Source: Patescibacteria group bacterium (GTDB lineage: Bacteria; Patescibacteriota; Microgenomatia; PFEM01; JAHIFH01). From it: DNA of 64,000 nucleotides. The translations under genes and the position numbers were made by a program. The notes under the pieces were generated by a model. It had not been told where the DNA came from and made no database searches. It was given only the letters and a program-made list of their open reading frames with translations. How positions within the stretch are numbered: the first letter of the stretch is position 1; the number at the start of each line of letters is the position of its first letter. Below are positions 20,040-58,090 of this stretch, piece after piece. The stretch lies in contig DATKWU010000009.1 of assembly GCA_035529375.1 (NCBI GenBank), positions 19,092 to 83,091 on the forward strand, given 5' to 3'.

Positions 20040-21072
20040 TGGCTACTTTTTCCCAACTGAACTTCTTGGCTTGATTTAAACCTCTTTTAATTAATTTCTC
20101 TCTTAAATCTTCATCTTCAATGGCTACCGCCAGGCCATTGGTTATATCATTTATATCATAAGGATCAACCAGCACCGCTGCTTGGCCAGAAATTTCCGGT
20201 AAACTTGCCTCTTTGCTGGTCACCACTGGCGTTCCACAAGCCATGGCTTGGATAACCGGCAAACCAAAACCTTCATAAAAAGAAGGCTGGCAATAAACCG
20301 TGGCGAGGTTATAAAGAACCACCAAGTCCTCATCAGACACGTAACCGACTCGAATCACCTCTTTATCCTGGCCATATTGCTTGATTAACTGAACCAAAGG
20401 CTGATCTTCAATATGGGTTTGATCAAATTCCTTTTGCGCTGCTTGCTTGCCGACAATCACTAAAGGCAGCTTCATCGCCTTACAAGCCTTAACTAAACCT
20501 AAAACATTCTTATTGTAATTAACGTCACCAACATAAAGAACGAATTTAACCGGTAAATTATATTTCTTCCTTACCTTTGCCAACTTCTTTTTTTCTTCGA
20601 TTGGTTGAAAAATTTCACTAGCCGCCAAATAAACAACCTCGATTTTCTCCTCAGGATAAGCTAGATAATGAGCAATGTCTTTTTTAGAATTCTTTGAATC
20701 AGTAATCACCCGATTGACTGTCTTGAGAGTCATTTTTTGCGCCTCAAATTTTAATCTACCTTTAATCCCGGGAGGATAATGTTCAGGAAAAACTAAAGGG
20801 GTCGTGTCATGGATAGTGACCACAGTTTTTTTCTTTCTCATTAAAGGTAAAGTTTTGAAAAATAAGTCAAAATAGGGATAGTGAACTAAATCACAATCTT
20901 TGGGAATTTCTCCTGCCTCAACTGAAACCACTTCAAAATCAGCTCTTTTAATTGCCTGAAGAGCTTGGAGCAAGCTTTGAGTATAAGCACCAATTCCTCG
21001 AAATTGATGACCTGTTTTTAATGGTGAAATATCAAGAGCAACTTTCATTATTTTTTTAACAAATAACGCCAA
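19996..21072 (-). CDS. Glycosyltransferase family 4 (GT-B)
   Basis: QPSFYEGFGLPVIQAMACGTPVVTSKEASLPEISGQAAVLVDPYD is the GT4 E-x7-E signature. 358 aa. Confidence 0.85.
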   Translation of the reverse strand: MALFVKKIMKVALDISPLKTGHQFRGIGAYTQSLLQALQAIKRADFEVVSVEAGEIPKDCDLVHYPYFDLFFKTLPLMRKKKTVVTIHDTTPLVFPEHYPPGIKGRLKFEAQKMTLKTVNRVITDSKNSKKDIAHYLAYPEEKIEVVYLAASEIFQPIEEKKKLAKVRKKYNLPVKFVLYVGDVNYNKNVLGLVKACKAMKLPLVIVGKQAAQKEFDQTHIEDQPLVQLIKQYGQDKEVIRVGYVSDEDLVVLYNLATVYCQPSFYEGFGLPVIQAMACGTPVVTSKEASLPEISGQAAVLVDPYDINDITNGLAVAIEDEDLREKLIKRGLNQAKKFSWEKVANETYKVYQKVVKAK

Positions 21073-21917
21073 TAGGCTCTAGGAAATCTTAAAGCCGAGA
21101 AAAAAGAAAAAACAATTCCCTGAAAGCCATCAAGAATGCCTTTATGCCTAAAAAGAGTTAAGAAAAACCAATAAATTGGTTTGATCAAAAAGTAATTCAG
21201 GGATTGAATTGGATTCTTGCTTAATTTTTTTTCTTTAAATTCAGCGACAATCAAATTAATATATTTACTATTCCTTTGAAGATATTTTTTAAAGGTGGTG
21301 TCCGCATAATGAAGGAGATCATTTTGCAACCAACCAACCTTGCCTTTAATCACAATCTGTTCATGAACATCCTGACAAGGAAAGTGGGCTTTGCCATTCT
21401 TGACCAGCCGAATAACGCCATCAGGATAAACCCCGCCATAACGAAGATATTTACCTAGAAAATAATTTAATCGGGCCACAAAAAAGCCAGCGTATTCACC
21501 TTTATCTTGACCAATCCTTCCGTCTCTTTTTTCGACTATTCTTTGGTGTCTTAAAAACAATTCTCTCTTGGTAATTATTTTTTGGTACCTATTAATTTTT
21601 TTATCACTTAAAGAAGTAATCATTTTAATCTCTTTAGATAATGCCTCAGTTACTCTTTCATCCGCATCTAACTGTAAAATCCATTCTCCCTGGCAGGCTT
21701 CTAGAGCTTTTTGTTTATTGATGTGAAAGATAGGCGGATTATTAGTAATCGTTACCTTGGCTCCATATTCTTTAGCAATCTCAACCGTCTTATCTTGAGA
21801 AGAACCATCAACAATAATAATTTCATCAGCCAAATCTTTGACTAATTCAAGACATTCCCCTAGATTTTCTTCTTCATTATAGGTAGCCAAAGCAACTGAG
21901 ATTTTATCTTTTTTCAT
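21048..21917 (-). CDS. Glycosyltransferase family 2 (GT-A)
   Basis: ISVALATYNEEENL...IIIVDGSSQDKT...LQLDADERV covers the GT2 DxD/NEE region. 289 aa. Confidence 0.8.
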   Translation of the reverse strand: MKKDKISVALATYNEEENLGECLELVKDLADEIIIVDGSSQDKTVEIAKEYGAKVTITNNPPIFHINKQKALEACQGEWILQLDADERVTEALSKEIKMITSLSDKKINRYQKIITKRELFLRHQRIVEKRDGRIGQDKGEYAGFFVARLNYFLGKYLRYGGVYPDGVIRLVKNGKAHFPCQDVHEQIVIKGKVGWLQNDLLHYADTTFKKYLQRNSKYINLIVAEFKEKKLSKNPIQSLNYFLIKPIYWFFLTLFRHKGILDGFQGIVFSFFSALRFPRAYWRYLLKK

Positions 21918-23062
21918 TTGATTCCCATTTTTTTAGTTTCAACTTTCTCTGGCAACATAAATTGAACCGAATCATCAGCTGTCACACCTCTTTCATCAGC
22001 AATAATTAAATTAATAGCGTGAACAATAGCTAGATGAGCAATTTGAATTTTGGAGGAAGATGGACCTTCAGGTTTAGCATTACTTTTAATAATCTGCTTT
22101 GCCTGTTTACCTAAGGGCGTATCAATATTCTCGGTAATGGCAACCGTGATGGCTTTCTTTTTCTTAGCCTGTCTTAAGATTTCATAAACAAAACCTGTGC
22201 CACCACTAGCAGAGATACCAATAACCACGTCTCCCTTATTAATAGCAAAACCAGCGTAACGAGCCAAACCTCCTTCTTCTTCACCTAGCCCTTTAGCAAA
22301 AGATACTGGTTGGGAATCAGCTAAATCATTAGTAAAAACCATAATCGGTAAACCGGTTTCAAGTCCCTGACCAGCCATTTCTCTGGCTACTAAAGCTGAA
22401 GCACCAGCACCAGTGACAATTACCTTTTTCCCTTTTTTAATTTGCCTCATAATCAACCTGGCCGTCTTTACAATTCCCTCTTTACTACTTTCCAAGGTAT
22501 CGGTCAATCCCTTCTGTTCCTCTTTAAAAACCCGCTCTATTTTAGACTCGATTGTCCGACAGCCATTAAAATCAATTGAAACCATTAAGGGTTTGTTAAT
22601 GTCAATTAACTGACCAACACTGTCAATCAAAGTTAAGTTATTGTAAGGAGTTTCTGTAAATTCTAAGGTTGTTCCTGGTAAATCACCCACCTTGTAAGAA
22701 GTTTTACAGAGATAATTAATCAAACTTGTTTTGCCAGCATTAAAAACGCCAAGAACCATAACTTTATCTCCCTTTTTGAAAAATTTATTGATCTTTTTTT
22801 CAAGTTTAGGTAGATTATGAAAAGTTTTTAAGGAAATCGGTAAAATTTCCTCTCTTAACTCTTTTTTTGTTTTTGATAAAGTCGTCCTTTTAACCCGATC
22901 GTCTTTATTACCAATCACCAGATAGTTCATTCCTTTTGTTTCACAGGCATCAATAAAAGACTTCGTTGTATTTATCTGCGGATCAACCAAATTAATAATC
23001 AAAATTGCTCCGGTCGGATCAGCTAATAAATAGGGGGCGGCTAGTTTTTTGGCTACTCTCAT
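21914..23062 (-). CDS. Fusion protein: circularly permuted GTPase domain (YlqF/RsgA-like motif order) + C-terminal SIS (sugar isomerase) domain
   Basis: N-terminal half shows G4 IGNKDD before G1 VLGVFNAGKTSLIN, followed by PGTT and LIDSVG; this is the cpGTPase order G4-G1-G2/G3. The C-terminal half has VIVTGAGASALVAREMAGQ...GDVVIGISASGGTGFVYEILRQAKKKK, as in the SIS domains of GmhA/KpsF. Confidence 0.6.
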   Translation of the reverse strand: MRVAKKLAAPYLLADPTGAILIINLVDPQINTTKSFIDACETKGMNYLVIGNKDDRVKRTTLSKTKKELREEILPISLKTFHNLPKLEKKINKFFKKGDKVMVLGVFNAGKTSLINYLCKTSYKVGDLPGTTLEFTETPYNNLTLIDSVGQLIDINKPLMVSIDFNGCRTIESKIERVFKEEQKGLTDTLESSKEGIVKTARLIMRQIKKGKKVIVTGAGASALVAREMAGQGLETGLPIMVFTNDLADSQPVSFAKGLGEEEGGLARYAGFAINKGDVVIGISASGGTGFVYEILRQAKKKKAITVAITENIDTPLGKQAKQIIKSNAKPEGPSSSKIQIAHLAIVHAINLIIADERGVTADDSVQFMLPEKVETKKMGIK

Positions 23063-24705
23063 TTCTCGGTAATCCTAAAAGCTATTTTACCATTTAAGAA
23101 ATAAATTTCTTTGATTATTTTAGTAGAATCAGGAATTTCTTCATCAGTGCCAATAATAAGAACGTTTTCTTCTTTTTCTAAGGCTTCAAAATCAATTTGC
23201 TCAAAATGGTATTTATCGAAATCACGGACGGTCGAAAAACCAAATCGATCACGAGGGGTTAACCTAACCTCTTGCTGAAATTTTTCCGGAGGGTATTGCA
23301 AATAAAAAAGAAATAAAATATAGGGTTGATCATACTTATCTGTAACGTAAATTCGTTCGTACTTCTCCCCGACTGTCTGAACATAACTCACTAACTGATC
23401 AAAACCATCCTCCCAAGCGTCCGGGTAAGTTTTGGGATAATGGAGATAGTATTGATGCAAATAACCACTGACACTCCAAATCAAAATAATAATCGCCAAA
23501 GCCCAGGCAATTCTCATCAATTTTTGACTTACCTTGTCTTTAAGCCACAACCAACCCTGGTAAAAACCATAAGCACTCACGATAACTAAGGGAACCACCA
23601 TTGATAAAGACCGAAGAGCATGGGGAGTTTGAAAAGTCATCGCTGCCGGTATCGGCGCCACCATCAACCAAAGAAGAAGCACAAGCCAATTTTCTGGCCT
23701 CTTTTTCAAAAGAAAGTAAATTCCCAAAACAACTAAAGGAATATCAAATAAATACATTTGACCTGTCTCGGGAACACGGTTTCTCTCAATAACGTCACCA
23801 CTAATAAACAAAAACTCTCCCTGAAAATGATCAAACCAATTTTTCCCAAAGGCAATCGTATAGGCTAAGTAGCGGTTGTGAATTAGACGCACCGGTAAAG
23901 CCATATTAGTGGCGTGCTGACCTCTCAGTTCATTAATCCGCCAGAGCGGTCCAGTATCCGCTATCAGGCCCACACCAGCAAACCGCGAAACTCCGGCTGG
24001 ACCAAGGAAACTAATCAACAAGGGAATTAAAATTACCAACCCCATAATACCGCTCATCAAAATTGCCTGGTAGTTTTTTCGCTTGAACAATTTGTCTCGA
24101 TAAAGAAAAACTAATCCCAAACCCAGAAGCGGAACAACTATCCGGGCACTATGGTAGGTATAAAAAGACAAAGAATAAGCTAAAACAGCCAGAATAAAAA
24201 ATCTTGGGTTTTTTAAGCCTTTAAAGAATAGCCAAGTACCCAAAATAATCAAGAAAGTGGCGGCGTTTGCTTCCCAACCGCCGCGGGAAAAATGGAGGTG
24301 CCAGGGAGAAATGGCTAAAAAGAAAGCGGCGATTAAACTCAAACGTTCGTCAGCAAATAGTTCTTTGACCAAAAGAAAAACCAGCCAAACGCTGAAAATA
24401 CCCAAAAGCGCTGACGGTAATCTGACGGCCAGGACATTAAGGCCGAGTAACTTAACAAAGGGTAAAACTAAATAGAAATAAAGACCTGGCTTGTAATCGC
24501 CAAAGGACTTGAAGTGCAAAGGCCAGGAAACGCCATGTTCATCCCTGCCGGTGAGGAGAAGAGAGTAAGCATTATAACCAATGGCCGCTTCATCAGCATT
24601 AAGTCCAGCCGGATATCGACTGAGATCCCAAAACCTTAAAACCGCTGCCAAAAGCAGAATTAAGACTAAAAACATCATGATTAATTTTGGTTTTCTGTTT
24701 TTCAT
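23059..24705 (-). CDS. GT-C glycosyltransferase, PMT/ArnT-like (GT39/GT83-like phospholipid-carrier-dependent glycosyltransferase), paralog 1 of 3
   Basis: 548 aa, polytopic. The first-loop motif RFWDLSRYPAGLNADEAAIGYNAYSLLLTGRDEHG contains the DE acidic motif typical of PMT/ArnT. Has a C-terminal soluble domain. Confidence 0.75.
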   Translation of the reverse strand: MKNRKPKLIMMFLVLILLLAAVLRFWDLSRYPAGLNADEAAIGYNAYSLLLTGRDEHGVSWPLHFKSFGDYKPGLYFYLVLPFVKLLGLNVLAVRLPSALLGIFSVWLVFLLVKELFADERLSLIAAFFLAISPWHLHFSRGGWEANAATFLIILGTWLFFKGLKNPRFFILAVLAYSLSFYTYHSARIVVPLLGLGLVFLYRDKLFKRKNYQAILMSGIMGLVILIPLLISFLGPAGVSRFAGVGLIADTGPLWRINELRGQHATNMALPVRLIHNRYLAYTIAFGKNWFDHFQGEFLFISGDVIERNRVPETGQMYLFDIPLVVLGIYFLLKKRPENWLVLLLWLMVAPIPAAMTFQTPHALRSLSMVVPLVIVSAYGFYQGWLWLKDKVSQKLMRIAWALAIIILIWSVSGYLHQYYLHYPKTYPDAWEDGFDQLVSYVQTVGEKYERIYVTDKYDQPYILFLFYLQYPPEKFQQEVRLTPRDRFGFSTVRDFDKYHFEQIDFEALEKEENVLIIGTDEEIPDSTKIIKEIYFLNGKIAFRITEK

Positions 24706-49338: not shown

Positions 49339-52300
49339 CTAAGGTTTAAAACCTGGAGGGATTTTGAGCCCAATGCCTCCATAAATTTCCTCAACTTCTT
49401 GAGGAGGAATGACTATTTGAAAAAGAGGGTCATCAGGATTTTGGCTTGGTTTGACTTGATAAAAGTCAAAGAGATAACGATAGCCGGCATTCATTCCCAG
49501 AGGGACTGAATAAGAAACATTGAATTTTTCTTCCTTGGCAATCTCGCCAATTCTCAAAACTACTTTTTCCTTATAATTTAAGCCTAATTGTTTGGACCCA
49601 AGTTGATTGACTAACTGACTACCTCTGAATAATAAAAGAAACAAGATTAAGAGAAAAACCAGTTGCCATTTTCTCATCACTTTAATTAAAAAGAGAGTCA
49701 AAAACAAAGCTAAAAAGGGATAAAGGAAATTAAAATAATATTCTGAAGGTCTCTGGCCAAAAATAGTAAAACCAAAAGGAAAGATTAACCAAAGAATGGT
49801 GGTGGCTAAATAAAACTTTTTCTTAAACTCTTCCGATTCTTTCTGCCAAAGAAAGATAATTATTCCCAAGGGCAAAAGATAAAATAAGAGAGGGAAAAAA
49901 GGAAGGTTAAAACCGCCAAAACCAGAGCTAATATTTCGCCAAACGGGCAGCCAGGCAAATAAATCGACTCCCCCGTTTTTCGGGGTAAGAAAATTAATCA
50001 ATGATCTGGTATTTAAGAACTGATGGCGCCAATCAAAAAGAAAAAGCGGTAAAAAAGTCAAGCCGATACCGATTAAAAAAGTAATTATTCTTTTGAAATT
50101 CAGTTTTTTATTAATCAGGAAAACTAAACTAAAAGGAATTAAATAGATTAATTGAAAATGAAAGTTAATTCCCATGCCGATTACTAAACCAAGGATTAAG
50201 CTAAAGACAAGAGAAGGTTTCTTAAAATACTTTGCCAAGAAAAACCAACTAAAGATAACCATTAAGGGCACTAAAATTGGATTCCAGGCAATTTGATCAA
50301 TCTCAATTAAGGATGGATGGAGTGACCAAATCAGGAGAAAAATCAAAGCGATTTGGCGATCAAACAACTTTTGCAATAGCCAATAAGCCAAAGCAAAAAA
50401 AGAAAGATTATAAAAGACAATAAATAAAACAATTGCTTGGGGATGAAGGGTAGTGATGAAGTAAAAAGGAGTTAAAAGATAGGTAAAATAAGGACCAAGG
50501 AAAAAGCCTTCTGGCCCCAAAACTCGAGGACCGATTAAAGTCAACTTCCCTTCCGTCAAGATCTGCTTAACGACCAAGGCGTCTCGTTCTTGATCCCAAT
50601 CAAAAATGACTCTTTCGTTAAGATGATAAAAACGGAAAAAAGAAAAAATTAGGAAAACAAGTAAAAGAGGAATCAGAAAAGAAAATTTTTTGAATTTTGG
50701 CAAATTTAATTTCGTTTTCCAAAAAAGTAAAACTAACCATGAAAGTAAAAAGAAGAGGCTAAGGCCATTGAAAAATTTCTGGGTTGGTGTTTGGACAATT
50801 CTCCATTCAACAGAATTATCACCTACATCTAACTTCACATTTTTTAAACAAATTCTGCCTTGACAATTAAAGTCATTTTGAACCAAATTTTGGTTAAAAA
50901 ATAACTGATAAGCTCCAGGAAAATATTCCAAATTGAGCCTGATGTCAGTCTCCAGCTCAACTGGACTCTCAAGAGTGATTTTGCCAAAGGTGTTGCCGCG
51001 TTCTACCTGATACGGGATTTCCACTCCTTCTTCTAAAGTCTTTATTGTTCCGCTCTGTTGGGCAAAAGGCGGCGGTTGATATTCTTCTGGAGAAGGTTTA
51101 ATTCTAGCAACGAAAGCATCGGCTTTTTCTATTGGGCCGACAAGAATGAAAGGTTCTTCAAAAGTACATCCCTTCTCGCTTTCACGATATAAAACATCAT
51201 CTTCAAAAGTAGTGGTGGAAAACCGGTGAATGTGGCGGCTTTCAAATTGGTAATAGGGGGTGATATCGTTGGTCGGTTGGGATAAAAGATGATTTCTATT
51301 ACCCACCAGGGCAAAAAAGATAAAAATAAAGGCTAAGCCTAAAGAAACCTTTTTCTCCTTTATCTTAGCTAAAAGAAATCCAGCGAGAGCGGCAATCGTA
51401 AAGCTAGTCACCCCCAAAAGTCGCCAAGAGAATTGAATTTTTTGAAGAAAAACTACTCTTTCCCAAAGAAAAAGCGAGTAAGGCAAGATAAGAAAAATTA
51501 AAAATAAGGAAAGAAAAAACCAGGAAAGAATCAGCGAATTTTCAAGGAAATATTGTCGTCTTTTTTTACTTCTTAGCCACTCCCAAACAAGAAACAAACC
51601 AGAGAAAAAAAGAACTAACCATTGGGCATAACCAAGCATAAAGGACATTTGATCATATTTTGTTCCCGGAGAAGAGTAATAATAGCCCCAAGGAGAACGA
51701 ATTAACTGTCTTAAAGTAGGAAAATGGTCCTGATAATTAATTGTCTGGAGGGTCGCGAGTCTAGTTTGACCTTGTTCCACCCAGGCGGGACCAATAAAAA
51801 AGGCAGCTAAACCAAAAAAACTTAAAAAAACCAAAAGGATAAAAACAATTTTCGTTTTGTCAAAAAACTTAAGCAAAATCATTTTATAAAGAATAAAAAA
51901 AGCAATAATCGGCAAGAGAAACATCGCCGCAAAGTTGTGGGAAATTAATAATAAGCTACCAACAATCACGGTTAAAAATCCTTTTAAATAAAGCGATTTA
52001 CCTTTGAGCTTGTCTTCAAACAAACCACTGATCAGAAAAAGCAATAACGGTAAAATCAGATAACTCATAAATTCGGGGCTGCCACGGACGAAAATTAGTA
52101 AAAAACGATAGGGGACAAAAAGATAGAGAATGGCGCCAACAAAACTGGCTAAGTAGTTTTTAGTCTCTCTTGAAAGCCAAAGATAAAAAAAGACGGGAGT
52201 CAAGAGAAGGGTGAAAAAATAAATAAACTTCAAAGAGAGAATCACATCGTTTACCAAAAAGTTGATAAGAAAAACGAGATAATAAATCAGGGGGTAGAAA

Positions 52301-52533
52301 AAATTATAGATAGGGATACCACCGTAATGATTTAAACTCCCGGCCCAGCGAAGAGGAAAATGGCCTTCTTTCAAAGTCGTAATTGCATCAAAACTCCGGG
52401 CGATATGGTGGTCGCCATCGTGGGTAAAAAAAGCATAGTGAGTAAAAAGACCTTTTGAGCAATAAACTCCCAGAAAAGCTAACACCAAAATAGCAATCAG
52501 CGAGAATTTATTTTTTTTCAAGAATTTCTTCAT
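49339..52533 (-). CDS. 1064-aa fusion of two GT-C-type membrane domains (N: YfhO-related HDD-family; C: ArnT-like DE-motif family)
   Basis: The N-terminus THDGDHHIARSFDAITTLKEGHFPLRWAGSLNHYGGIPIYNFFYP parallels ORFs 43623/45301. Around residue 600, FYHLNERVIFDWDQERDALVVKQILTEGKLTLIGPRV parallels the N-terminus of ORF 52508 (FYRLPEYMTFLGDEGRDALVWLRMIRNGKFVLIGPV). Confidence 0.6.
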   Translation of the reverse strand: MKKFLKKNKFSLIAILVLAFLGVYCSKGLFTHYAFFTHDGDHHIARSFDAITTLKEGHFPLRWAGSLNHYGGIPIYNFFYPLIYYLVFLINFLVNDVILSLKFIYFFTLLLTPVFFYLWLSRETKNYLASFVGAILYLFVPYRFLLIFVRGSPEFMSYLILPLLLFLISGLFEDKLKGKSLYLKGFLTVIVGSLLLISHNFAAMFLLPIIAFFILYKMILLKFFDKTKIVFILLVFLSFFGLAAFFIGPAWVEQGQTRLATLQTINYQDHFPTLRQLIRSPWGYYYSSPGTKYDQMSFMLGYAQWLVLFFSGLFLVWEWLRSKKRRQYFLENSLILSWFFLSLFLIFLILPYSLFLWERVVFLQKIQFSWRLLGVTSFTIAALAGFLLAKIKEKKVSLGLAFIFIFFALVGNRNHLLSQPTNDITPYYQFESRHIHRFSTTTFEDDVLYRESEKGCTFEEPFILVGPIEKADAFVARIKPSPEEYQPPPFAQQSGTIKTLEEGVEIPYQVERGNTFGKITLESPVELETDIRLNLEYFPGAYQLFFNQNLVQNDFNCQGRICLKNVKLDVGDNSVEWRIVQTPTQKFFNGLSLFFLLSWLVLLFWKTKLNLPKFKKFSFLIPLLLVFLIFSFFRFYHLNERVIFDWDQERDALVVKQILTEGKLTLIGPRVLGPEGFFLGPYFTYLLTPFYFITTLHPQAIVLFIVFYNLSFFALAYWLLQKLFDRQIALIFLLIWSLHPSLIEIDQIAWNPILVPLMVIFSWFFLAKYFKKPSLVFSLILGLVIGMGINFHFQLIYLIPFSLVFLINKKLNFKRIITFLIGIGLTFLPLFLFDWRHQFLNTRSLINFLTPKNGGVDLFAWLPVWRNISSGFGGFNLPFFPLLFYLLPLGIIIFLWQKESEEFKKKFYLATTILWLIFPFGFTIFGQRPSEYYFNFLYPFLALFLTLFLIKVMRKWQLVFLLILFLLLFRGSQLVNQLGSKQLGLNYKEKVVLRIGEIAKEEKFNVSYSVPLGMNAGYRYLFDFYQVKPSQNPDDPLFQIVIPPQEVEEIYGGIGLKIPPGFKP

Positions 52534-54855: not shown

Positions 54856-56019
54856 ATGAAAGTCATCAAAAAATCTTGGCGCGATCTCCTGATTATTAGC
54901 CTGGTCAGCTTAGCTTCAACCGCCCTTATCTGGCTACCTTTTTTCTTAAGACTACCTCGCTTTTGGAATATTAACTTACCGGCCGGAGGAATGGCGACGA
55001 TTATGAAAAATTTTGACGGCCTTTATTACGTGGTGATTGCCAAATCTCTTTACAATCCAGAGATTATTAAGAACCTTGTTCCTTTTGATTTACCGGTTAT
55101 CTATTATGCCGCCCACTTTCCTCTTTATCCCCTTTTAATCAGAATTGGCAGTCTGGTTATCAATTCCCTTTGGTCAATGCTTTCGATTAGCGTTCTGGCG
55201 GCCCTCTTATCGGCTTTTGTTTTTTATCTTTTTCTTAAAGAATTCAGACTCTCAAAAGAACCTCTCTGGCTAGCAATTGTTTACCTTCTATTTCCGGCTC
55301 GCTGGCTGATTGTCCGCTCCGTCGGTTCACCCGAACCTCTATTCATTCTTTTCTTGCTTCTCTCCTTTTACTTTTTTAAGAAGAAAAATTGGTGGCTGGC
55401 TGGGAGTTTTGGGGCCCTGGCCCAACTAACCAAACCGCCGGGAATTTTGCTTTTTCTGGCTTACGGAATCTACATCTTCTGGCAAAATTGGCAGGCAATT
55501 AAAGAAGATTGGCAAACCAAACTAAGTCAGCTAACTAAAACCTATGCTCCTCTTTTCTTGATCCCTTTAGCTCTTTTAGTAGTCTCCCTATACTATTTAT
55601 ATATCTATGGCGATTTCTTTGCCTATTTTCATTCAGGTGACAATATTCATCTTTTCTGGCCACCCTTGCAAATTTTTAATGCGGCTGCCGCCTGGGTAGG
55701 CACTTATTGGCTAGAAGAAGCAATTTATATTTATTTAATAGGAATTTTAGGGGTGATTTATTTGTTTAAACAAAAACGTTATGAACTGGGATTTTTTACG
55801 GCGGTCTTTTATTTCACCACTCTTTTTATCTCTCACCGGGATATTAGTCGTTACAGCCTACCCATGCTCCCTTTCATTCTGATTGCTTTTGACAAATTTT
55901 TAGTCAGAAAAGAATTTAAAATTGCTTTTGGAGTAATTCTCTTACCAATCTATCTTTATGCTATCAATTTCATTACGGGGAATACTTTAGCCATTGCTGA
56001 CTGGACTCCATTTTTATAA
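54856..56019 (+). CDS. GT-C-type membrane glycosyltransferase, PIG-V/DUF2029-like
   Basis: 387 aa, polytopic. The motifs NFDGLYYVVIAKSLYN and LAQLTKPPGILLFLAYG are shared in pattern with ORF 18849..20039. Confidence 0.55.
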   Translation: MKVIKKSWRDLLIISLVSLASTALIWLPFFLRLPRFWNINLPAGGMATIMKNFDGLYYVVIAKSLYNPEIIKNLVPFDLPVIYYAAHFPLYPLLIRIGSLVINSLWSMLSISVLAALLSAFVFYLFLKEFRLSKEPLWLAIVYLLFPARWLIVRSVGSPEPLFILFLLLSFYFFKKKNWWLAGSFGALAQLTKPPGILLFLAYGIYIFWQNWQAIKEDWQTKLSQLTKTYAPLFLIPLALLVVSLYYLYIYGDFFAYFHSGDNIHLFWPPLQIFNAAAAWVGTYWLEEAIYIYLIGILGVIYLFKQKRYELGFFTAVFYFTTLFISHRDISRYSLPMLPFILIAFDKFLVRKEFKIAFGVILLPIYLYAINFITGNTLAIADWTPFL

Positions 56020-56913
56020 CTTCCTCACAACCCCCTTCTCCGCATTAACATCAACTAGATCACCATCTTTCAAGGCTTTAGTCGCTATCTGCGTTCCCAC
56101 TACGCAAGGAATTTTCATTTCTCTTGAAATAATAGCCGCATGACACAATATTCCGCCTTCGTCTGTCACAATTGCTGAAGTTTTTTGAATAATAGTGGTA
56201 AATTTAGGGGAAGTCATCTTAGTAACTAAAATCTCACCCTTATTAAACCTTTCTATTCTTGCAGGATCCAAAATAACCCGAACTCTACCACTGGCTTTTC
56301 CTTTAGAAGCAACTATTCCAGAGATTTTCTTAATTTTTTCCGGAGCTTTCGGAATTTTTCTTTTTTTAATAAGGAAGCTATATTTTTTGATTAAATCACC
56401 ATAGGTTTCAGCTAGTTTTTTCTCTCCTCTCCTCAAAAATACTTTTCTTTGGTCATCAACAGAAGTAAGAACTCGTGCGCCCTTATCTTCTCCCCATCCC
56501 TTATCGTTGCACTGAGAGAGAAGGAGGTTTAATTCTCCCAAGCACCCCCACGGAGTGTGAACTAGGATTTGTTTTCTATTAGGAAGAGAATACCTGATAG
56601 TCTTCTTAGACCTTTTCTCAAAATCTAACGGTGATCCGGGAATAATATCAACCTCAAACCCCGTCTTTTTTACAAATTGGTGATATTGTCTAGCGGATTT
56701 TGTTCCTTTAGGCGGATGAATCTCAAGCCCCTCTCCCACTTTCCAGGGAAGTTTATTTTTATTGACTAGAATATTGAAATGCCCTTCCCTAACTTTTACT
56801 TCATAGCCTAAAAGTCTGTAGGCGTACTGAGAAGTAAACACCCAATCGTCTTGAGATAATCCCCAATCCTTGAGAAGCTCTTCTAAACTCTCTAATGCTT
56901 TTTCTATTCCCAT
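56014..56913 (-). CDS. Protein with C-terminal PEP-utilizing-enzyme mobile (phosphohistidine) domain; N-terminal domain unknown
   Basis: The C-terminus GEILVTKMTSPKFTTIIQKTSAIVTDEGGILCHAAIISREMKIPCVVGT matches the swivelling phosphohistidine domain of PEP synthase/PPDK. 299 aa. Confidence 0.6.
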   Translation of the reverse strand: MGIEKALESLEELLKDWGLSQDDWVFTSQYAYRLLGYEVKVREGHFNILVNKNKLPWKVGEGLEIHPPKGTKSARQYHQFVKKTGFEVDIIPGSPLDFEKRSKKTIRYSLPNRKQILVHTPWGCLGELNLLLSQCNDKGWGEDKGARVLTSVDDQRKVFLRRGEKKLAETYGDLIKKYSFLIKKRKIPKAPEKIKKISGIVASKGKASGRVRVILDPARIERFNKGEILVTKMTSPKFTTIIQKTSAIVTDEGGILCHAAIISREMKIPCVVGTQIATKALKDGDLVDVNAEKGVVRKL

Positions 56914-56923
56914 AAAAAGACAC

Positions 56924-58090
56924 CTATCCTATCCTTCTTTGAATCCGGCCAAAAAGTTTAGATTTTCTTGTTTTCCAGATAAAAGTGGTATACATAAAGA
57001 AATTGTAAGGAAGAACCAGAAAACCAATCGCCAAGATTAAGAATATTTGACGCCATTGATCGCCAAAGAAACTCGTCCCGGCCCAAACAACGATCGTCTG
57101 GATAATCAAAGCTCCCATCGAAGTTAAATTAAACTGAATGAATTTGTAGGGCAGTTGTTTTAGCGAAACAATCTTTTTCTCGGCAAAAGTCCAGATATTA
57201 TTGAGAATAAAATTGCTAATAATAGCCAATTCGGTAGCAATGGCTGTGGCCGGACCAGGCGAAAAGCCAGCCCGATAGAAAACTTCTAAACCGATGGCGT
57301 TAACTAAATAACCAATAAAGCCAACTACGGCAAATTTCATGAATTGAATGGTCTTAGGATCTTGAAGCCGCAAAAGAATCACGGAAATAAGAGTCACAAT
57401 CACGTCTTTGCTACTTAACTTAGATCTGCCGATTTCCCGAACTTTGAATCTCAAGGGAATTTCCACTATTTTAGCTTTATTTTGAACTAATTGATAAAGA
57501 ATTTGGGTTTTGTAGAAAAAACCACTGGAAAGGCGAGAAAAATCAATCTGATCAAGAACGCCTCTAGTTCTGGTCAACTTCAAACCTGTGGTCGTGTCTT
57601 TAACAATATTAATCTTAGGAAAAAAGAGAACGATTCGACTAAAAAGACCACCAAAAGTGGTTAAAATCTTTCTAAAAAGACCCCATTCTTTGGGGATTAA
57701 GCCGCCTTTAATAAACCTTGAGCCGATAACATGATCATAACCTTGGTCAAATTTTTTGACTAAATCAATAATGTATTGAGGGTCGTGCTGAAAATCAGCG
57801 TCAAATTCAATTACCGCCACCGCCTCCATCTTTTCCATTGCCTGCTTCATTCCCCGAATATAAGCTGCCCCTAAACCCTCTTTCTTACCTAAAGAAAGCT
57901 CTACATTCTTGTACTTCTTCATCTTCTCTTTAACCACCTCCGCCGTCCCGTCAGGCGAATGATCATCAACCACTAAAATACTCATCTCATATTTCTTGAT
58001 CTTAGGAAAAACCTCTTTTTCTAAGACTTCAATCATCTTGGCAATATTTTCTTTCTCGTTGTAAGTAGGAATAATGACAACAATCTTCAT
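56924..58090 (-). CDS. Polyprenyl-phosphate (dolichyl-phosphate-type) mannosyl/glycosyl transferase GT2 fused to C-terminal GtrA-like membrane domain
   Basis: N-terminus IVVIIPTYNEKENI...ILVVDDHSPDGT...GAAYIRGM is DPM1-like. The C-terminus FMKFAVVGFIGYLVNAIGLEVFYRAGFSPGPATAIATELAIISNFILNNIWTF is the GtrA-family signature. Confidence 0.8.
   Translation of the reverse strand: MKIVVIIPTYNEKENIAKMIEVLEKEVFPKIKKYEMSILVVDDHSPDGTAEVVKEKMKKYKNVELSLGKKEGLGAAYIRGMKQAMEKMEAVAVIEFDADFQHDPQYIIDLVKKFDQGYDHVIGSRFIKGGLIPKEWGLFRKILTTFGGLFSRIVLFFPKINIVKDTTTGLKLTRTRGVLDQIDFSRLSSGFFYKTQILYQLVQNKAKIVEIPLRFKVREIGRSKLSSKDVIVTLISVILLRLQDPKTIQFMKFAVVGFIGYLVNAIGLEVFYRAGFSPGPATAIATELAIISNFILNNIWTFAEKKIVSLKQLPYKFIQFNLTSMGALIIQTIVVWAGTSFFGDQWRQIFLILAIGFLVLPYNFFMYTTFIWKTRKSKLFGRIQRRIG

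Follow-up and report, generated by a model that had tools for sequence, protein, structure and literature searches.

A circularly permuted GTPase fused to a SIS domain is conserved across Patescibacteria and other lineages and recurs behind predicted glmS ribozymes

We analyzed a 64,000-nucleotide stretch of Patescibacteria contig DATKWU010000009.1 (positions 19,092 to 83,091; hereafter the window), in which a first-pass annotation had singled out an open reading frame (ORF) joining a circularly permuted GTPase (cpGTPase) to a SIS (sugar isomerase/phosphosugar-binding) domain. The gene is complete and lies on the minus strand at 21914–23062 as a single uninterrupted ORF, with an ATG start and a stop codon at 21914–21916, encoding a basic fusion protein of 382 aa (computed pI 9.5). 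The intact frame and the Pfam pair MMR_HSR1/SIS confirm the fusion, and Pfam matches likewise confirm its annotated position between glycosyltransferase genes: a GT-C/PMT_2 membrane glycosyltransferase upstream (23059–24705, minus strand; PMT_2, 2.6e-10) and a GT2 glycosyltransferase downstream (21048–21917, minus strand; Glycos_transf_2, 1.4e-18). The stop of the PMT_2 gene overlaps the start of the fusion gene by 4 nt, as the stop of the fusion gene overlaps the GT2 start, and the same synteny is found in the related metagenomic locus L017. Both junctions read ATGA, and the three genes are therefore probably translationally coupled. This gene order is common only to the closest relatives of the window copy (L017 and L014). 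The window encodes TrmD, which marks the DNA as bacterial, and an identical protein (P0001) occurs on a 406-kb contig of a Patescibacteria metagenome-assembled genome (MAG).

The N-terminal half of the protein (aa 12–165; 22568–23029, minus strand, like all parts of the gene given below) has the strand order beta4-beta5(G4)-beta6-beta1(G1)-beta2-beta3(G3). The G4 motif NKDD (aa 52–55; 22898–22909), which confers guanine specificity, precedes the G1/P-loop GVFNAGKTS (aa 105–113; 22724–22750), and these are followed by G2/switch I, PGTT (aa 129–132; 22667–22678), and by G3, DSVG (aa 147–150), with Gln151 directly behind it (DxxGQ; 22610–22624). Conservation was assessed over 83 full-length copies from independent metagenomic contigs with a locus GC content of 27% to 68%, and N52, K53, D55, G105, F107, N108 (the P-loop Asn), G110, K111, P129–T132, D147, G150, and Q151 are identical in 83/83. 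The permuted motif order that the first-pass annotation had read from the letters, and its assignment to the YlqF/RbgA/RsgA class of cpGTPases, thus hold at verified coordinates, and in fold the G domain matches solved cpGTPases, permuted topology included. MMR_HSR1 scores above its Pfam gathering threshold (4e-11), and three cpGTPase models align collinearly below theirs: Pfam RsgA_GTPase over aa 13–127 (25.7 versus 30), NCBIfam YqeH over aa 21–152 (41.9 bits versus 297.4), and NCBIfam YlqF over aa 48–154 (34.7 bits versus 208.2). Judged from its sequence, with all nucleotide-contacting motifs invariant, the G domain is a complete, competent, and guanine-specific cpGTPase of the YlqF/YawG-RsgA type.

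The cpGTPases are treated as ribosome-biogenesis factors, and the structural neighbors of this G domain are all GTPases of that kind. The scores argue against membership in the specific families RbgA/YlqF, YqeH, and RsgA (YjeQ/CpgA), every equivalog cutoff being far out of reach, as does the lack of the RNA-binding accessory domains (OB, zinc-finger, or YlqF C-terminal) that define those families; the remainder of the protein is the SIS domain. In contrast to these GTPases, the fusion has a metabolic C-terminal partner and a genomic context of sugar metabolism rather than ribosome biogenesis, and we found nothing linking it to ribosome assembly. It also differs from them at the residue directly after DxxG, the classical catalytic position, which is filled by a hydrophobic residue in most cpGTPases, including the YlqF/RbgA, YqeH, and RsgA families, and by an invariant Gln here. 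An Asn in the P-loop is a hallmark of cation-dependent GTPases, some of them activated by dimerization. The invariant Gln151 and Asn108 may therefore serve as leads to the GTPase mechanism.

Switch II continues into the inter-domain linker QLIDINKPLMVSIDFNGCRT (aa 151–170; 22553–22612), in which Q151, I153, D154, P158, M160, and D164 are invariant (Q151-x-I-D-x-x-x-P-x-M-x-S-x-D164 being essentially unchanged across the 83 copies) and which runs straight into the long N-terminal SIS helix (H171–209); the AlphaFold2 model has low confidence (pLDDT) at 151–160. The G domain is hard-wired through switch II and this linker to a phosphosugar-type pocket. The SIS domain itself (aa 171–375; 21938–22552) matches Pfam SIS_2 (51.1 bits, cutoff 27; 2e-13) and SIS (43.9 bits, cutoff 25; 3e-11), and has the S-x-S-G-x-(S/T) phosphate loop after beta-3 and the flavodoxin-like alpha/beta fold of the superfamily. 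The two segments on which the first-pass annotation had based its SIS call, GAGASALVAREMAGQ (aa 218–232) and GISASGGTGFVY (aa 282–293), are present, and the domain is of the GmhA/MurQ type. Its phosphate-binding loop SASGGTGFVY (aa 284–293; 22184–22213) aligns with the STSG(K/N)S loop of GmhA and is invariant or nearly so in 83/83, S284-A-S-G-G-T-G most strictly. Profile alignments and conservation define two further pocket elements. The helix GAGASALVAREMAGQGLE (aa 218–235; 22358–22411), with invariant S222, E228, Q232, and E235, is the counterpart of the helix carrying catalytic residues in GmhA and MurQ, and the pocket loop and last helix KPEGPSSSKIQIAHLAIVH (aa 330–348; 22019–22075) contribute invariant Q340, H343, and H348. 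The protein ends in an essentially invariant tail, KKMGIK (aa 377–382; 21917–21934; K377, M379, G380, and K382 in 83/83), which matches no known motif, is partly kept in stand-alone SIS paralogues (MGDK, MGWK), and may plug into a neighboring subunit or a partner.

The pocket residues set the family apart from the characterized enzymes nearest to it. Profile and pairwise alignments to B. pseudomallei GmhA place E228 at His64, Q232 at Glu68, Q340 at Gln175, and H348 at His183, which we take to be the metal/catalytic positions of that enzyme. Two of these four positions differ (His to Glu and Glu to Gln), and all four family residues are invariant. GmhA mutants H64Q, Q175E, and D61A are represented in the PDB, where the best-scoring sequence is a GmhA variant with Gln at the Glu68 position (5lu5, 'AGQFV'). 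Scores against the GmhA models are low (TIGR00441, 31.8 bits versus 209.45; PRK00414, 30.5 versus 265), and the fusion differs from GmhA further in its attached GTPase and in having no recurring heptose-pathway genes nearby. MurQ, together with GCKR and the MurR/RpiR sensor domains, is the top match class in both NCBIfam and Foldseek, and the fusion shares with MurQ a 'PE...SS(S/R)xK' loop after beta-4 and a setting in amino-sugar-phosphate metabolism. It falls well short of the MurQ equivalogs (TIGR00274, 40.5 bits versus 302; PRK05441, 56.8 versus 168), lacks the C-terminal extension of MurQ, and has two features that MurQ does not, the GTPase and predicted regulation by glucosamine 6-phosphate (GlcN6P). 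In the MurQ profile alignment, the Glu of the segment 'DASEC', presumably the catalytic Glu83 of the E. coli enzyme, falls on invariant E228 with a 4-residue gap nearby. The pocket therefore looks like a hybrid, with a carboxylate where MurQ has its base and a Gln where GmhA has its base, an arrangement that would suit an active site of new specificity as well as a site that only binds. The MurQ, HxlB, and GmhA matches in this half all lie far below their curated NCBIfam cutoffs, and no NCBIfam model comes near its cutoff for the fusion protein.

The fusion forms a large and tight family. At least 500 matches were found in a search of 5.8 billion clustered proteins, and the best 120 of them are about 380–410 aa long, cover 95–100% of the query at 55–78% identity, and have the same Pfam pair. 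An exhaustive HMMER scan of 1.84 billion representatives at 50% identity returned essentially one full-length family representative (P0121); below it came fragments and two members with inteins, before the matches fell off to generic SIS proteins at E about 1e-7. An alignment of 45 sequences has about 100 invariant columns, and any two members are on average 52% identical over the G domain and 66% over the SIS domain; both halves are under purifying selection and the gene under strong selection. One intein-containing relative (P0123, 772 aa) is interrupted inside the P-loop (GVFN|C...HN|SGKTS) by an element with Phage_endo_I/NUMOD3 endonuclease motifs, and the other (P0122, 736 aa) has a LAGLIDADG-type intein at PEGP|SSSK of the SIS domain; Intein_splicing and homing-endonuclease domains confirm both. 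Since inteins typically lodge in functionally critical sites, the P-loop and the SIS pocket both likely matter.

We attach a negligible probability to the fusion being an assembly or frameshift artifact or a pseudogene. The first-pass annotation had raised the possibility that a frameshift or stop, or two adjacent genes, would appear in relatives. Nothing beyond a few half-length database entries pointed that way, and these proved to be contig-end fragments, a truncated copy beside an IS110 element, or a diverged stand-alone SIS paralogue, none of them a split fusion. The ORF is intact in 83/83 independent assemblies (the L042 copy, too, has an intact translation), in addition to the at least 500 database matches. 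Two candidates for a split fusion were rejected on inspection. L010 encodes a stand-alone SIS paralogue (41% identity) preceded by an ORF for something other than a GTPase; L011–L013 carry a truncated GTPase-only copy beside an IS110 transposase. The latter remnant (about 1570–2125; 183 aa) ends just past the linker and is followed by a DUF1616 fragment and the transposase, with TumE/MJ0235-type toxin-antitoxin genes flanking; it is probably a decayed copy.

Although both domains are well known, their combination, the tight family, and its placement behind a glmS ribozyme (see below) appear undescribed in the sources searched. No solved structure covers both halves, NCBI names the proteins only 'SIS domain-containing protein' or '50S ribosome-binding GTPase' and IMG 'GutQ/EngB', and full-text literature searches for the architecture or the ribozyme link returned no paper tying a glmS ribozyme or a SIS domain to a GTPase. 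Within the literature, NCBIfam, and solved structures, the annotator's impression of a novel architecture is therefore upheld.

Family members come from contigs labeled Patescibacteria, Parcubacteria, Microgenomates, Anaerolineae (several MAGs), and Candidatus Bipolaricaulota; the Bipolaricaulota genome papers contain nothing on GlmS or hexosamines. A further clade (L019/L096), whose protein is 62% identical to that of the window, is labeled 'Deltaproteobacteria', and its direct neighbors are the small subunit of replication factor C (RFC) and a glutamine amidotransferase-QueC (Gat-QueC) fusion, because of which we regard the gene content as that of archaeal-type contigs. The archaeal RFC on the 'Deltaproteobacteria' contig of P0017/L019, and the label Thermoproteota archaeon on P0320, which shares a 90%-identity cluster with several Bipolaricaulota proteins, look like MAG binning or labeling errors. 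In L096 (4128–5729) and L019, the amidotransferase-QueC gene overlaps the GTPase-SIS start; a radical-SAM gene is close by, and the RFC small subunit is encoded downstream. L010 (2114–3337), too, has a QueC gene in the vicinity of its stand-alone SIS paralogue. These QueC neighbors may hint at a 7-deazapurine or amidotransferase link.

The most informative feature of the related loci lies in front of the gene. We scanned 73 loci with Rfam at gathering thresholds (37 for RF00234, the GlcN6P-activated glmS ribozyme) and found RF00234 in 19 of them at 37.7–68.9 bits. All 19 matches are full length (model positions 1–167), are on the same strand as the GTPase-SIS gene, and lie 75–187 nt upstream of its start codon. 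Among loci with at least 330 nt of upstream sequence, the ribozyme is present in 19/63; when the proteins are clustered at 90% identity it occurs in 12 of 37 clusters, and at 80% in 7 of 29. The carriers span a GC content of 0.34–0.65 and include Anaerolineae-labeled, Bipolaricaulota-labeled, and Candidate Phyla Radiation (CPR)-like contigs. The core segments AGCG, ACGAGG, GCGGA, and ACAA are invariant, and across 15 diverse aligned copies compensatory changes preserve 31 of the 38 predicted base pairs. Examples are L064:4727-4925, L051:4662-4887, L039:4673-4882, L034:4597-4824, L089:4681-4895, and L050:4626-4925, the last with a large insertion (about 300 nt in total). The two riboswitch surveys consulted (PMC2258182, PMC5473149) present the glmS ribozyme solely as repressing glmS.

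The arrangement downstream of the ribozyme varies. In an Anaerolineae-type clade the order is ribozyme, GTPase-SIS gene, and, after 21 nt, glmS, placing both genes in one operon behind a single ribozyme. In L064/L072, L034/L037/L048, L085, L089, L090, and L065, what follows is a convergent gene or a tRNA, which leaves the GTPase-SIS gene as the sole cargo of the ribozyme; a '513-aa gene' after it in L065 was rejected as a high-GC artifact ORF, and the annotated 10-kb flanks of three sole-cargo loci contain no glmS. In L050 the gene belongs to a cluster for peptidoglycan precursors with the order PgeF-like, MurC, MurB, MurA, ribozyme, GTPase-SIS, a 189-aa ORF, and a CofD/YvcK-family protein (273 bits). 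The leaders match a ribozyme by which GlcN6P shuts off expression, and this offers a clue to function: the protein would be made when GlcN6P is scarce. On a Bipolaricaulota-type contig, genes with family matches to BshC, BshB (PIG-L), and BshA (GT4) (L098:15209-18618) lie ~4 kb downstream of a ribozyme-controlled copy. Bacillithiol synthesis is another pathway that consumes UDP-N-acetylglucosamine (UDP-GlcNAc).

We also clustered the flanking ORFs of 80 metagenomic loci and several long contigs, counting as tightly coupled those neighbors on the same strand with a gap of at most 60 nt. The family splits into lineage-specific syntenies. Tight neighbors include GlmS (5–6 loci, 21-nt gap; 803–817 bits, above cutoff), a PGM/PMM mutase closest to archaeal GlmM (Arch_GlmM-like; 6 loci, 16-nt gap), a HAD-IA hydrolase (phosphatase; 7 loci, 4-nt overlap), archaeal-type GlmU-like (Arch_glmU-like) nucleotidyl/acetyltransferases, GNAT acetyltransferases, and GalE-like and LegB-like epimerases/dehydratases (8 loci), as well as CapD-like dehydratases, UDP-sugar dehydrogenases, and polysaccharide deacetylases. 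The genes for the three successive steps of UDP-GlcNAc synthesis are thus all represented next to the GTPase-SIS gene, in different clades, and a GlmR-like neighbor occurs in one locus only (L050). Sugar-related neighbors are lacking in just one large clade, of low GC content (13 loci), in which the gene has LepA/DivIC on one side and L10-L7/L12 on the other, with tRNA genes and 150–220 nt gaps intervening. Eight loci of this clade (L025, L026, L033, L043, L022, L024, L028, and L029) have one or two tRNA genes immediately upstream of the gene, and the L10 leader (RF00557) and L10-L7/L12 operon downstream; there is no ribozyme, and regulation there must therefore differ. Three neighboring ORFs had no family matches: cluster 21 of the low-GC clade (331–332 aa), the 189-aa ORF of L050, and a 105-aa ORF of the LepA/L10 clade.

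The ribozyme and the GlmS, GlmM, GlmU, and GlmR neighbors point to the supply of GlcN6P and of UDP-GlcNAc-type precursors for the cell envelope as the link common to the family, and we consider it quite probable that the family belongs to hexosamine and nucleotide-sugar precursor supply. As a complete explanation, we give somewhat better than even chances to a GTP-gated protein that binds a hexose or hexosamine 6-phosphate and promotes GlcN6P/UDP-GlcNAc supply. We infer the ligand, its conversion, and the gating as follows. The SIS pocket would bind, and probably convert, a hexose or hexosamine 6-phosphate of the fructose 6-phosphate (Fru6P)/GlcN6P class; the GTP/GDP state, relayed through switch II, would open or assemble that pocket and so place the flow into the hexosamine pathway under GTP control; and the protein would thereby raise GlcN6P/UDP-GlcNAc supply or be needed when supply is low. 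Single-SIS enzymes form their active sites at subunit interfaces, and GTP-dependent pairing of the G domains could therefore assemble the site. The concept resembles that of IcmF, a MeaB-like GTPase (a SIMIBI G3E metallochaperone) fused to isobutyryl-CoA mutase: there, too, a GTPase would be covalently fused to the metabolic enzyme it gates, although GTPase class, enzyme fold, and pathway all differ. The cpGTPase CpgA hydrolyzes 4-phosphoerythronate (PMC6449344), and the class can therefore act on phosphosugar-type metabolites.

The first-pass annotation had proposed a GTP-regulated phosphosugar isomerase or sensor feeding the GT-C/GT2 glycan pathway next to the gene. That proposal was right in direction, and its link to the local glycan applies to a small clade (the window, L017, and L014) rather than to the family. 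The window copy, which has no ribozyme, would have been recruited to a glycosylation operon, where it presumably supplies or meters a sugar precursor for that glycan. Several observations weigh against a GTP-gated protein of hexosamine supply. The absence of RF00234 from the window copy is one, and another is the low-GC clade, whose 13 loci offer only loose non-sugar neighbors (LepA, DivIC, tRNAs, and L10/L7-L12). The canonical pathway from Fru6P to UDP-GlcNAc has no missing isomerase step for the protein to fill, and one clade encodes the fusion and GlmS within a single operon. Q232, the invariant Gln found where GmhA has its catalytic Glu, would suit a domain that only binds; matches to the characterized SIS enzymes GmhA, MurQ, HxlB, KpsF, and GlmS are all far under their NCBIfam cutoffs; and we know of no precedent for GTP gating of a SIS pocket.

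One alternative is a non-catalytic sensor or regulator whose SIS domain does no more than bind a metabolite of the pathway (GlcN6P, Fru6P, or a UDP-sugar precursor) and whose GTPase switch activates or releases GlmS or another enzyme of the pathway; we regard this as possible, though rather unlikely. Such a protein would be a one-polypeptide functional analogue of RapZ or of YvcJ-GlmR. RapZ combines a kinase-like N-terminal domain with a PFK-like C-terminal domain, whereas the fusion pairs a TRAFAC cpGTPase G domain with a SIS sugar domain, and Pfam and NCBIfam scans at E≤1 returned no RapZ or YvcJ family; the resemblance would be functional only. In E. coli (RapZ) and B. subtilis (YvcJ-GlmR), a P-loop NTPase with a GlcN6P/UDP-GlcNAc-binding domain or partner tunes GlcN6P synthesis (PMC7525490, PMC9841335, PMC6171935), and the fusion protein may work in a like manner. 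GlmR (CofD/YvcK family) activates GlmS in B. subtilis, and the usual partner of its gene is yvcJ/rapZ, which encodes the P-loop NTPase (PMC7525490). The GTPase-SIS gene of L050 lies upstream of the GlmR-family gene with one small ORF between, in roughly the position of yvcJ in Bacillus, although this is the only locus with such a neighbor. Elsewhere the gene stands alone under the ribozyme or is coupled to genes for a HAD phosphatase, a mutase, or glycosyltransferases, and GlmS is not encoded close by, which argues against this reading. The mean SIS identity of 66% across phyla and the invariant acid/base set (E228, E235, K257, E261, D278, E311, D314, E332, K338, H343, and H348) also argue against a sensor, conservation of this degree being more typical of an enzyme.

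A catalytic extreme, which overlaps our preferred reading, is a glutaminase-independent GlcN6P synthase: the SIS domain would aminate and isomerize Fru6P, using ammonia or a partner amidotransferase, with GTP hydrolysis driving or gating the reaction. As an isofunctional alternative to GlmS, it would explain the inherited glmS ribozyme. Also in its favor are the role of sole ribozyme cargo in several clades without glmS within 10 kb and the adjacency to GlmM-like and GlmU-like genes, where glmS often sits. The SIS fold serves GlmS, NagB-II/GlmD, MurQ, and NagS for C1-C2 chemistry on hexosamine 6-phosphates, including the interconversion of Fru6P and GlcN6P, and in archaeal-type L096 a class-II glutamine amidotransferase domain (fused to QueC) overlaps the gene start. 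However, the fusion has one SIS domain where GlmS and NagB-II have two, no N-terminal glutaminase (GATase) domain, an added GTPase, and a score of 27.6 bits against the glmS equivalog cutoff of 418; it coexists with a complete GlmS in one operon; and no TRAFAC GTPase is known to drive such chemistry. We therefore think such a synthase quite doubtful. Slightly less doubtful, if still unlikely, is the wider possibility that the second cargo of the glmS ribozyme is a GTP-dependent enzyme that lacks a glutaminase domain and produces GlcN6P or the compound just before it, a non-GlmS entry to hexosamine and cell-wall precursors. The two remaining explanations fare worse. An ordinary GmhA- or PMI-type ketose-aldose isomerase (sedoheptulose 7-phosphate or Fru6P to a manno-configured sugar), with an accessory GTPase, could feed the local PMT/GT87/GT2 mannose or heptose glycan; the changed GmhA positions and low GmhA score make this improbable, as no heptose kinase or GDP-mannose genes recur alongside and the ribozyme and GlmS/GlmM/GlmU neighbors point to hexosamines instead. 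More improbable still is a ribosome-assembly or translation checkpoint GTPase sensing envelope-precursor status through its SIS domain. The structural neighbors of the G domain, the basic pI, and the placement between LepA/DivIC and the L10-L7/L12 operon, with its L10 leader, would fit this idea, but the RNA-binding accessory domains are absent, the YqeH and YlqF scores are a fraction of their cutoffs, and the ribosomal neighbors are confined to one clade and separated from the gene by 150–220 nt and tRNA genes.

The roles known for cpGTPases would broaden with a large and extremely conserved branch that is joined to a phosphosugar domain and embedded in amino-sugar metabolism. The repeated occurrence of the ribozyme in front of a non-glmS gene, often alone, would enlarge the glmS-ribozyme regulon. 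The family is a candidate for the poorly known control or feeding of peptidoglycan and glycan precursor synthesis in Patescibacteria/CPR, Bipolaricaulota, and Anaerolineae; it could act there as a GTP-gated enzyme, as an activator of GlmS, or as another synthase of GlcN6P. There is a realistic chance that it represents a new way into hexosamine synthesis or a new regulator of that entry. Were the non-GlmS entry real, it would be used by Patescibacteria, Chloroflexota (Anaerolineae), Bipolaricaulota, and some archaea, and the protein would be the first cpGTPase with a metabolic rather than ribosomal primary job. Steps controlling GlcN6P supply are of interest as antibacterial targets and for cultivating these lineages.

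In the window, the fusion gene is part of a ~40-kb glycosylation island (about 17500–56000; both strands, mostly minus). The island encodes at least 11 GT-C membrane glycosyltransferase paralogues (PMT_2/PMT/PTPS_related), two GT87, one YfhO, about nine GT2, and two GT4 proteins, a GT2-GtrA protein, two Wzx-like flippases, RmlC/RmlD, and a methyltransferase. Many of these genes overlap by a few bases, and one GT-C paralogue, at 49339–52533, is double-length (1064 aa). At 56014–56913 (minus strand) lies a gene for a 299-aa protein whose sole recognizable part is a C-terminal mobile (phosphohistidine swivel) domain of PEP-utilizing enzymes; it is found directly downstream of a GT2-GtrA fusion of the polyprenyl-phosphate sugar synthase type (56924–58090, minus strand), an odd pairing.

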